From sequence record MK327936.1: DNA of 64,000 bases; one strand, written 5' to 3'. Each line of letters opens with the position of its first letter. Within the stretch, counting starts at the first letter, position 1. Positions 36,785-38,401 of this stretch are shown piece by piece. Position numbers and translations under genes: made by a program. The notes under the pieces were generated by a model. The model was not told where the DNA came from and searched no databases. It was given only the letters and a program-made list of their open reading frames with translations. Source of the stretch: Escherichia phage vB_EcoM_G2540.

Positions 36785-36940
36785 CGAAACGCCGGGATTC
36801 GAACCCGGTTATTAAGTAGTTGACGCTACTCAATATTTTTAAAAGGCCATATCTCGACCATATCCGAACGTTCCGTCAAAAACGCTACTCGGCTTACGGC
36901 AAAGATATTTCCTCGAATCGATAATTCGGTGCGCCGTTTC
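36785..36940 (-). ncRNA. Putative stable tRNA-like RNA (T4 species-1/2-type)
   Basis: T-arm-like CCGGG-TTCGAAT-CCCGG and a 6-bp terminal pairing but no complete cloverleaf; within the tRNA operon before the terminator. Confidence 0.3.
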
Positions 36941-36944
36941 TGCT

Positions 36945-37043
36945 GTGATAGTAAAGAATCAGAACACAGTAAAACTGTGGGAGAAACTATACTCCAGGGA
37001 ACATCAGTCCGACGACTTACCGGTAGCGACCCGGTTTCTTGTC
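36945..37043 (-). ncRNA. Putative second stable RNA between tRNA-Arg and the tRNA-like RNA
   Basis: Non-coding interval inside tRNA operon; T4 encodes two stable RNAs here; boundaries approximate. Confidence 0.25.
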
Positions 37044-37119
37044 TGGTCGAGGCAGTAGGGATCGAACCTACGACCCAGGACTTAGAAGGTCCTTGCTCTT
37101 CCTTCTGAGCTATGCCCCG
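37044..37119 (-). tRNA. tRNA-Arg (anticodon TCT), CCA encoded
   Basis: Manual fold: acceptor CGGGGCA/TGCCTCG, D-arm GCTC..GAGC, anticodon loop CTTCTAA, T-arm GTAGG-TTCGATC-CCTAC. Confidence 0.75.
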
Positions 37120-37122
37120 TAA

Positions 37123-37788
37123 TTAAAATTTCATTTTTCGACCTTTAAACCATCCTTCTGGAATTGGGTCAGTTTTCTTAATAAGTTTAGAAACTTTTTC
37201 ATCTAATGAATGAATCCACATCATACCAAATTGGGAATTCTTTTCGCCTTGTTGGTGTTTATTTCTGGCGTGAGATTCTTTCATTTTATTAATAGTTTCA
37301 AGAGTATGGGTCTTACCCAAGAAAGATTTAGTATTTAAAAATTTCTCTCTATACTTAGGATTATCCCAAAGCTGTTTAAACCTTTCTGAACCCATTTTAC
37401 GATATTTTTCTTTAAGGTCTGGGTCGTTCTCAAATCTGGTTTTAAAAGCGGCAGCTCCTTTTAAGGAAGCTTCTTTCTTTTTATCCAAATATTCTTTAGT
37501 GTTTAAATGGTCCCAACCACCTTCACCACCTAATTTCAAATTATAAACATCAGGGCGCTTTAAAAACTCTTCAGTCACAATATTCTTTTCTGACTCAAAC
37601 ATAGAGGTTTTATCGTCAAAGAACTCTAATATTTCTTTAGAAAAATTTTCTATACCATACTTATCTTGGGCTCTTTTTAATAATTTACCAGAACCCATAT
37701 ATCCATCATCTAAATTTTCGGTAGAATGCACACCAATATAAATTTTATTATTAATTTTATTTGTTATTTTATAAGTGTAATGGAACAT
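37123..37788 (-). CDS. segB: GIY-YIG homing endonuclease SegB
   Basis: 221 aa; YTYKITNKINNKIYIGVHS GIY-YIG motif; embedded in tRNA cluster as in T4. Confidence 0.8.
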   Translation of the reverse strand: MFHYTYKITNKINNKIYIGVHSTENLDDGYMGSGKLLKRAQDKYGIENFSKEILEFFDDKTSMFESEKNIVTEEFLKRPDVYNLKLGGEGGWDHLNTKEYLDKKKEASLKGAAAFKTRFENDPDLKEKYRKMGSERFKQLWDNPKYREKFLNTKSFLGKTHTLETINKMKESHARNKHQQGEKNSQFGMMWIHSLDEKVSKLIKKTDPIPEGWFKGRKMKF

Positions 37789-37829
37789 AAATATCTCCTA
37801 TTTCTAAGAGTATTTATGTTCCCAAAATA

Positions 37830-37901
37830 TGGCCCTGGGTGGAATTGAACCACCATCTGGCGATTATGAGTCGCTTGCTTGAACCTTCCAGCTACAGGGC
37901 C
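37830..37901 (-). tRNA. tRNA with CAT anticodon (T4 tRNA-Ile-type; Ile via lysidine, or Met)
   Basis: Manual fold: acceptor GGCCCTG/CAGGGCC, anticodon loop CTCATAA, T-arm GGTGG-TTCAATT-CCACC. Confidence 0.75.
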
Positions 37902-37907
37902 TTGATA

Positions 37908-37980
37908 TGCTGATTGACGGAATCGAACCGCCGACATCCTCATTACAAGTGAGTTGCTCTACCTACTGAGCTAAATCAGC
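37908..37980 (-). tRNA. tRNA-Thr (TGT)
   Basis: Manual fold: acceptor GCTGATT/AATCAGC, D-arm GCTC-AGTAGGTA-GAGC, anticodon loop CTTGTAA, T-arm GGCGG-TTCGATT-CCGTC. Confidence 0.8.
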
Positions 37981-37987
37981 GAAATTA

Positions 37988-38074
37988 CGGAGGCGATAGG
38001 ATTTGAACCTATGAGTCGCCGGAGCGACTGCCGGTTTTCAAGACCGGTGCATTAAACCACTCTGCCACGCCTCC
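37988..38074 (-). tRNA. tRNA-Ser (TGA), long variable arm
   Basis: Manual fold: acceptor GGAGGCG/CGCCTCC, anticodon loop CTTGAAA, long variable arm, T-arm ATAGG-TTCAAAT-CCTAT. Confidence 0.8.
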
Positions 38075-38076
38075 AG

Positions 38077-38150
38077 TCTCCATACAAGGATTTGAACCTT
38101 GGACCTCCTGATCCCAAATCAGGCGCTCTACCAAACTGAGCTACACGGAG
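38077..38150 (-). tRNA. tRNA-Pro (TGG)
   Basis: Manual fold: D-arm GCTC-AGTTTGGTA-GAGC, anticodon stem CCTGA/TCAGG loop TTTGGGA, T-arm CAAGG-TTCAAAT-CCTTG. Confidence 0.8.
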
Positions 38151-38163
38151 TAAATTAAATTTG

Positions 38164-38234
38164 AGCGGATAATGAGAATCGAACTCACATCATCAGATTG
38201 GAAGTCTGAGGTAATGCCATTATACGATATCCGC
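38164..38234 (-). tRNA. tRNA-Gly (TCC)
   Basis: Manual fold: acceptor GCGGATA/TATCCGC, anticodon stem TCAGA/TCTGA loop CTTCCAA; begins GCGGATATCGTATAATGG like T4 tRNA-Gly. Confidence 0.8.
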
Positions 38235-38240
38235 AAACTT

Positions 38241-38327
38241 TGGTACGAGAAGTGGGACTCGAACCCACAAGGAAATCATTCCGCAGCATTTTAAGTGCTG
38301 TGCCTTTACCAATTTGACCATTCTCGC
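38241..38327 (-). tRNA. tRNA-Leu (TAA), long variable arm, CCA encoded
   Basis: Manual fold: acceptor GCGAGAA/TTCTCGT, anticodon stem CAGCA/TGCTG loop CTTAAAA, T-arm GTGGG-TTCGAGT-CCCAC. Confidence 0.8.
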
Positions 38328-38328
38328 G

Positions 38329-38401
38329 CTGGGAATAAAGGACTCGAACCTTTGCATCTAGCAGTCAAAGTGCTATGCCTTACCAACTTGGCTAATTCCC
38401 A
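38329..38401 (-). tRNA. tRNA-Gln (TTG)
   Basis: Manual fold: acceptor TGGGAAT/ATTCCCA, anticodon stem TAGCA/TGCTA loop CTTTGAC, T-arm AAAGG-TTCGAGT-CCTTT. Confidence 0.8.

Follow-up and report, generated by a model that had tools for sequence, protein, structure and literature searches.

The window analysed here, a 64-kb stretch (64,000 nucleotides) of Escherichia phage vB_EcoM_G2540 (MK327936.1), contains a block of genes which is very probably the tRNA operon of a T4-like (Tequatrovirus) coliphage, carrying the homing endonuclease gene segB and the genes of two stable RNAs. The tRNA genes were called with ARAGORN and with Rfam covariance models, and the open reading frames (ORFs) were examined with Pfam and PHROGs. 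ARAGORN called eight tRNA genes and no more in the window; they lie between 37044 and 38401 on the minus strand, and the Rfam tRNA model matched the same eight places with 57-70 bits (gathering score 29). No Rfam threshold was reached elsewhere in the 64 kb. The order of transcription is Gln (UUG), Leu (UAA), Gly (UCC), Pro (UGG), Ser (UGA), Thr (UGU), a tRNA with a CAU anticodon (CAT in DNA; referred to as the CAT tRNA) and, 711 nt further on, Arg (UCU). These eight anticodons, their order and their single strand are those of the T4-type operon, and so are the position of segB, the rnaD and rnaC genes with the terminator, and the sequence of the middle promoter. One property of the T4 operon was not found: the CAT tRNA and tRNA-Arg are not T4 alleles. 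This mismatch is ordinary variation within the family and no ground for exclusion. The 1.9-kb region matched 946 GenBank phage records, nearly all from Tequatrovirus and related coliphages, of which 111 cover at least 80% of the region with identities of up to 96.7%. The locus is a textbook T4-type tRNA cluster, already known and ordinary save for the patchwork of its gene variants. The T4 tRNA cluster, SegB homing and the species 1 and species 2 RNAs were described between the 1970s and the 2000s.

An earlier note on this DNA had proposed, within 36785-38401, eight minus-strand tRNAs in the T4 order interrupted by a GIY-YIG segB gene, and about 260 nt after tRNA-Arg that might encode the two stable RNAs of T4. 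All of this was borne out. The gene order and anticodons on which ARAGORN and Rfam agree are those of the T4 annotation, and ARAGORN, one of the tools by which the proposal was to be checked, supports all eight tRNAs with their anticodons. The segB gene is an intact ORF in the T4 position, and the 261 nt from 37043 to 36783 align to rnaD and rnaC of T4. The start of the proposed span is no more than 2 nt away from the 3′ end of rnaC, and the other limit of the span, 38401, is the 5′ end of tRNA-Gln.

All eight minus-strand genes were detected by both ARAGORN and Rfam. tRNA-Gln (38328/38329-38401; no CCA encoded; 100% identical to T4) is adjoined, with a 1-nt spacer, by tRNA-Leu (38241-38327; CCA encoded; 98.9%), which is the arrangement of a dimeric precursor. 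They are followed by tRNA-Gly (38163-38234; 98.6%) and by tRNA-Pro (38076/38077-38150; no CCA; 100%), which adjoins tRNA-Ser (37987/37988-38074/38075; long variable arm; no CCA; 100%). tRNA-Thr (37908-37980; no CCA) is 98.6% identical to its T4 counterpart over 73 nt; the annotated T4 gene has 76 nt and is 3 nt longer at its end. The CAT tRNA (37830-37901), which ARAGORN labels ‘Met’, and tRNA-Arg (37044-37119; CCA encoded; with a G3·U70 wobble) are both T2-type alleles. An encoded CCA end is present only in tRNA-Leu and tRNA-Arg; the six other tRNAs would be completed by 3′ trimming and the CCA-adding enzyme of the host.

The CAT tRNA, which according to the earlier note would read AUA as isoleucine only after lysidine modification by host TilS and would otherwise be a Met tRNA, did prove to have the features expected of such an AUA reader. 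Its acceptor stem (G1-C72, G2-C71, C3-G70, C4-G69, C5-G68, U6-A67, G7-C66, followed by A73) includes the pairs C4-G69 and C5-G68 which are required by E. coli TilS (PMC1635315; PMC11947777), and it lacks the pairs U4-A69 and A5-U68 which mark the elongator tRNA-Met (PMC9976931). The determinants of isoleucyl-tRNA synthetase U12-A23, C29-G41, A37, A38 and A73, all of which belong to the bacterial isoleucine set (PMC9976931, Table 1), are present as well; the positions of the D-loop determinants G16, U20 and U21 are ambiguous in this tRNA. Positions 28-42, that is, the four inner pairs of the anticodon stem and the loop, are identical to those of E. coli ileX. The overall identity is 75% to ileX, 63.5% to T4 tRNA-Ile, 57% to the elongator metT and 49% to the initiator metZ, and among 5,344 E. 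coli genomes the best-matching genes were all annotated as tRNA-Ile. Since the TilS pairs and the isoleucine determinants are present, the methionine pairs are absent and ileX is the closest relative, we consider the CAT tRNA with high confidence to be a lysidine-dependent tRNA-Ile2 reading AUA. Judging from these identity determinants, host TilS would convert C34 into lysidine, and the tRNA would then be charged with isoleucine and read AUA. The E. coli ileX product is itself a tRNA-Ile2 whose CAU anticodon is converted to lysidine-AU by TilS; it shares with the phage tRNA the GGCCC start of the acceptor stem, positions 28-42 and A73, whereas the phage tRNA has a shorter, unusual D-arm, a different T-stem and no encoded CCA.

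Three observations weigh against this assignment: the label ‘tRNA-Met’ given by ARAGORN and by nearly all GenBank records, the naming of the T2L copy as tRNA-Met (PMC2330249), and the D-stem of just 3 bp in the ARAGORN drawing. If the CAT tRNA were an ordinary elongator tRNA-Met reading AUG, the phage would supply no decoder of AUA. The records of T2, PP01, G28 and AV116 all annotate it in this way, and an unmodified tRNA-Ile2 with the CAU anticodon is charged by methionyl-tRNA synthetase (PMC9976931; PMC1635315). However, these labels derive from the anticodon alone, and C4-G69 and C5-G68 stand in the place of U4-A69 and A5-U68. The anticodon arm identical to that of ileX and the greater overall identity to ileX than to metT point the same way; moreover, the gene occupies the slot of the annotated tRNA-Ile of T4, and AUA is over-used in the phage ORFs. 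An elongator tRNA-Met is thus highly improbable. The label ‘tRNA-Met’ which the T-even CAT tRNA carries in nearly all of some 700 phage records is probably a systematic annotation error worth correcting.

The segB gene (37123-37788, minus strand) encodes a free-standing GIY-YIG homing endonuclease of 221 aa. This assignment is supported by the Pfam GIY-YIG domain PF01541 (25.9 bits, cut-off 22.6), by PHROG 314 ‘homing endonuclease’ (E = 7e-50) and by an ungapped alignment with T4 SegB over 221 of 221 residues with 83% identity (84.5% at the nucleotide level). The translation contains the YIG motif Y17-I18-G19, of which Y17 and G19 are essential for catalysis in T6 SegB (PMC13096335). The Shine-Dalgarno sequence (AGGAG) and the AUG codon lie within a predicted hairpin at 37782-37822 on the minus strand (−21.4 kcal/mol; z = −6.6), a value matched by none of 200 shuffled sequences, and SegB translation is probably held down by this structure. 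Between the segB stop codon and the 5′ end of tRNA-Arg there are 3 nt. SegB recognizes a 27-bp site with the core GGTTCRANTCC (PMC2330249), the TΨC motif of tRNAs, which occurs eight times in the window (0.13 expected by chance), seven times inside the operon. The eighth match, GGTTCAAATCC at 63405-63415 on the minus strand, lies far from the operon in a place without an ARAGORN tRNA and without a listed complete ORF of at least 80 aa; it may fall in a gene running off the end of the window. It may represent a secondary site for SegB or have arisen by chance.

Two SegB protein alleles were distinguished in the phage records, and that of the window is the rarer one (53 records at ≥95% identity vs 127 T4-type records at 80-90%). 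Its closest relative, with 99.1% protein identity, was found in Mosigvirus AV116 (OR352946.1). The nucleotide identity between the two phages amounts to 93-100% only from about 37850 to the 3′ end of segB. The left edge of this block falls in the TΨC arm of the CAT tRNA, at GGTTCAATTCC (37851-37841), and since this sequence is the core of the SegB recognition site, the edge of the block lies at the enzyme’s own motif. Such a pattern is what would be expected as the trace of double-strand-break repair following SegB cleavage, and is in line with the published idea that neighbouring tRNA genes spread along with SegB. The 99.1% identity of the two SegB proteins suggests a recent transfer of segB between genera. 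In AV116 itself, positions 1888-2743 comprise a minimal module consisting of tRNA(CAT), segB and tRNA-Arg. According to the published homing model, SegB would, in a mixed infection, cut the tRNA genes of segB-less relatives in their TΨC-arm sequence, and repair would then copy segB and the adjoining tRNA genes, yielding a fine mosaic such as that of the window. Site-specific cleavage by the SegB of the window and its preferential inheritance are predicted from this model and from the sequence.

The identity to T4, profiled in 40-nt bins across the operon, does change over short distances. From tRNA-Gln to tRNA-Thr it is 92-100%, in the CAT tRNA it falls to 62-72%, and in the segB leader and the first approximately 165 nt of the gene, which encode the catalytic domain, it is again 92-100%. 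The middle of segB (37620-37301), presumed to encode the DNA-binding part, is 57-82% identical and the 3′ end of the gene 87-100%. The bins in tRNA-Arg give 45-72%, the 5′ part of rnaD 100%, its apex about 60% and rnaC 97-100%. Element by element, BLAST gave 100% identity for the Gln, Pro and Ser tRNAs, about 99% for Leu, Gly and Thr, 99.3% for rnaC, 78% for rnaD and 84.5% for the segB nucleotide sequence, and the tRNA-Ile and tRNA-Arg of T4 had no match in the window. We also considered the divergent CAT tRNA and tRNA-Arg as novel isoacceptors and rejected this, as both are common T2-type alleles. The CAT tRNA is identical to the copies in T2, PP01 and several IMG/VR contigs, and its allele is commoner than that of T4 (584 vs 129 phage records). 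Allele frequencies are megablast counts in the GenBank phage set, which was used because a scan of IMG/VR with the rnaD 5′ anchor gave just six loci. Phage G28, which matches best overall, shares its tRNA-Arg and its segB allele with the window but has the other rnaD apex, which implies that the modules reassort independently. A stretch of tRNA-Gln (38341-38380, minus strand) has 100% identity with T4, yet no more than 80% with PP01 and G28, otherwise the closest relatives of the window. Even the ‘shared’ tRNAs are thus exchangeable alleles. The locus cleanly illustrates mosaicism on the scale of approximately 100 bp in the surroundings of a homing endonuclease, one of the exchange boundaries coinciding with the recognition motif of the enzyme.

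The eight tRNAs would read the A-ending codons CAA, UUA, GGA, CCA, UCA, ACA, AUA and AGA. The comparison with host codon usage which the earlier note had recommended was carried out on 77 ORFs of the window, and all eight cognate codons were found to be over-used. Together they account for 155 per 1000 codons in these ORFs, compared with 79 per 1000 in ordinary E. coli K-12 genes and 25 per 1000 in the genes of ribosomal proteins and elongation factors. They are used two to six times more in the AT-rich phage than in E. coli; AGA (4.7-fold), GGA (3.6-fold) and AUA (2.4-fold) are among the most enriched, AUA occurring at 13 per 1000 in the phage ORFs vs 0.4-5 per 1000 in the E. coli samples. 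These counts support, without proving, the classical role of the phage tRNAs in supplementing the host set; on the other side of the balance, AT bias alone gives a similar trend.

The phage tRNAs might instead serve mainly as a counter-defence, replacing host tRNAs which anticodon nucleases and other forms of immunity directed at tRNAs have cleaved or depleted, with SegB retained as an amplifier. The SegB motifs in six tRNAs and in rnaC of the operon would suit such a role, and in T6 the amplification of neighbouring tRNA genes by SegB can provide an escape from a defence that cleaves tRNA (Chihara et al. 2026, PMC13096335). However, all eight tRNAs exactly fit the over-used A-ending codons, as supplementation predicts, and the operon contains no tRNA-Tyr. 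Tandem amplification of the T6 kind was looked for in the window and was absent; just two short direct repeats were found. As the window has neither tRNA-Tyr nor an amplification, a T6-like role of SegB is a mere possibility here, and counter-defence as the main purpose of the tRNAs appears doubtful. The two models are not mutually exclusive and both can hold.

The 261 nt following tRNA-Arg are assigned to the rnaD and rnaC pair on the basis of their alignment to the annotated T4 genes. Both are on the minus strand: rnaD (species 2 stable RNA; 36928-37042) has 115 nt and is 78% identical to T4, and rnaC (species 1 stable RNA; 36783-36921) has 139 nt and is 99.3% identical. Both would be processed, structured RNAs. 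Their function is listed as unknown in reviews and in a 2025 study (PMC3014915; PMC12685909), and the absence of a function after decades of work on T4 is an argument for regarding the whole stretch as functionless, i.e. as decayed tRNA genes or processing by-products which are kept only by their position before the terminator. The perfect T-arm GGTTCGAATCC (36805-36795) in rnaC would fit a degenerate tRNA, and so would the result of a permissive Rfam search of the rnaD/rnaC stretch, which gave sub-threshold matches only (the best being tRNA-Sec with 17 bits, E = 0.95) and no curated family covering either RNA. In addition, the fold of rnaD alone is no more stable than that of shuffled controls (z = −1.2), and the apical domain of this RNA is exchanged freely among alleles. 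On the other hand, T4 and the window agree in 99% of rnaC while differing by 15-40% in the adjoining genes, and rnaC folds far above chance (−50.2 kcal/mol; z = −4.6 vs shuffled sequence). In a consensus fold made from anchor-extracted sequences of related loci, the 5′ hairpin and the long-range basal stem of rnaD are invariant in ten loci, and three of the four pairs of its junction stem show compensatory changes. Moreover, T2 retains both RNAs despite its rearranged tRNA set, and when a T4-like phage adapted to a new host, every line acquired a convergent single-nucleotide polymorphism in rnaD (PMC12685909). We therefore regard a lack of function as unlikely. The apical part of rnaD (about 50 nt; 36945-36995, minus strand) exists as two unrelated alleles, a T4/PP01 type and a T2/window type, on the invariant basal frame. 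An ORF separates tRNA-Arg from rnaD in two of the related loci (L004 and L005).

A MotA-dependent middle promoter is predicted at 38471-38495 on the minus strand, with the MotA box TGCTTTA (38495-38489), a 12-nt spacer and the −10 element TATTAT (38476-38471). These elements, read from the sequence, are located 70-95 nt upstream of tRNA-Gln, and the 97 nt preceding this gene are 97.9% identical to the T4 spacer (BLAST). A generic σ70 scan speaks against the promoter: it gave 9 sites vs 9.7 expected, nothing above chance. T4 middle promoters have no −35 element, which makes such a scan uninformative, and the MotA box was read by hand for this reason. With the scan at chance level, the prediction rests on this box and on the identity to T4, where a middle promoter is located just upstream of the tRNA cluster (PMC2330249). 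At the other end, an intrinsic terminator with a 10-bp GC-rich stem, a GAAA loop and a T-run, conserved with T4, is predicted at about 36704-36732 (minus strand). The same middle promoter, terminator and segB hairpin and the same closeness of the segB stop codon to tRNA-Arg were described in T4, for which a single transcript of approximately 1.75 kb from the middle promoter, with tight repression of SegB translation, was proposed; RNase P processing at tRNA-Arg was proposed to truncate the segB message (Brok-Volchanskaya et al. 2008, PMC2330249). The operon of the window would likewise be transcribed from the MotA-type promoter as one RNA comprising the seven tRNAs, the segB mRNA, tRNA-Arg, rnaD and rnaC up to the intrinsic terminator, from which host enzymes would excise the individual RNAs.

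The acceptor stem of tRNA-Arg contains C1-G72, G2-C71, the wobble pair G3·U70 and G4-C69, followed by A73. The bacterial alanine identity set consists of G3·U70 as the major determinant, A73, G2-C71, G4-C69 and G20 (PMC9976931), and tRNA-Arg carries four of these five, all except G20. Exact 30-mer searches gave G at position 3 in 211 and A in 208 GenBank phage records. A3-U70 is found in T2, PP01 and one metagenomic contig, and U70 is constant in ten aligned loci. A sequencing error as the source of G3·U70 was rejected, because G28 has the identical sequence and those 211 records carry G3. This tRNA-Arg(UCU) might be partly charged with alanine by the host alanyl-tRNA synthetase (AlaRS), so that AGA would be read ambiguously as Arg or Ala. 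Such a reading can draw on the four determinants, including the major one, and on the reality of the variant in about half of the related phages. Nevertheless, two properties of a tRNA-Ala are missing, as position 20 is A and the first pair is C1-G72 rather than G1-C72; alteration of the 1-72 pair to G1·U72 in another tRNA prevents recognition by E. coli AlaRS (PMC9976931). All the arginine determinants (A20, C35, U36 and A73) are present, and arginyl-tRNA synthetase should therefore compete well. Wobble pairs also occur in the acceptor stems of other T4 tRNAs (G1·U72 in T4 tRNA-Arg and G2·U71 in T4 tRNA-Ile), and the spread through half of a successful phage group is better explained by a neutral, helix-keeping change from A-U to G·U. 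Alanylation is thus very unlikely, and a neutral polymorphism preserving the helix is the likeliest explanation of G3·U70. If AlaRS did charge the G3 variant, the G3/A3 polymorphism would be a natural experiment in tolerated or selected viral mistranslation.

The operon is flanked by two ORFs in which Pfam detected no domains and which PHROGs assigned only to families of unknown function. The 157-aa ORF (36185-36658, minus strand; PHROG 2280) is inserted, with respect to T4, between the operon terminator and e.8, and has one copy of a 36-nt direct repeat (97% identical) on either side, at 36145-36180 and 36700-36735. The repeat contains the terminator hairpin, so that the terminator is duplicated. 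The T4 late-promoter-like sequence TATAAATA is located at 36702-36695, right after the first repeat copy. The 171-aa ORF (38488-39003, minus strand; PHROG 2290) lies between trna.2 and the middle promoter of the tRNA operon; it is absent in T4 and present in T2 (RB32ORF134c-like), and it ends with a stop codon overlapping the MotA box. A cassette of about 60-80 nt, in which GTTTACA is followed by GGTACTATAC and which looks like a T4 early promoter, recurs in at least four intergenic sites, all on the minus strand (approximately 35960-36045, 23217-23280, 21276-21335 and 39875-39953). At 23205-23315, a GC hairpin with a T-run stands immediately before the cassette. It is similar to the promoter/stem-loop cassettes which have been proposed as mediators of module shuffling in genomes of the T4 type.

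The locus is present in hundreds of sequenced phages and adds little to the biology of the T4-type operon. The comparison with T4 itself (NC_000866.4, 70908-72530) shows the same gene order, strand and anticodons, a SegB of 221 aa in both phages, a promoter region with 98% identity upstream, and the same hairpin and terminator; six tRNAs and rnaC are 98.6-100% identical. The window further differs from T4 in the spacer between tRNA-Thr and the CAT tRNA (6 nt vs 1 nt) and in the extra ORFs flanking the operon on both sides. T2/T2L (MH751506; PMC2330249) has an identical CAT tRNA, a tRNA-Arg differing solely at position 3 and the same rnaD apex, and shares with the window the 171-aa ORF upstream of the promoter. 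Unlike the window, T2 has neither segB nor tRNA-Thr, but contains an extra ORF (trna.1), tRNA-Tyr, tRNA-Asn and an ORF between tRNA-Arg and rnaD. The tRNA-Asn gene of T2L, which is missing from the window, is the preferred cut site of SegB (PMC2330249).

In T6 (AP018814.1; PMC13096335), segB is located inside the tRNA array and Y17 and G19 are conserved, as in the window. The tRNAs of the window contain RAWTSGAAC, the T6 cleavage motif, which equals the reverse complement of the TΨC motif. The T6 order Gln-Leu-Gly-Thr-Met-Tyr-segB is different, and T6 amplifies against Septu the very tRNA-Tyr gene which the window lacks. Mosigvirus AV116 belongs to another genus, and its counterpart of the seven-tRNA array is reduced to one tRNA. 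Its flanking tRNAs diverge from those of the window (60-63% identity in the 5′ part of the CAT tRNA and 73-86% in tRNA-Arg), whereas segB and its 5′ hairpin are 93-100% identical at the nucleotide level, with the same types of flanking genes and with rnaD and rnaC downstream.

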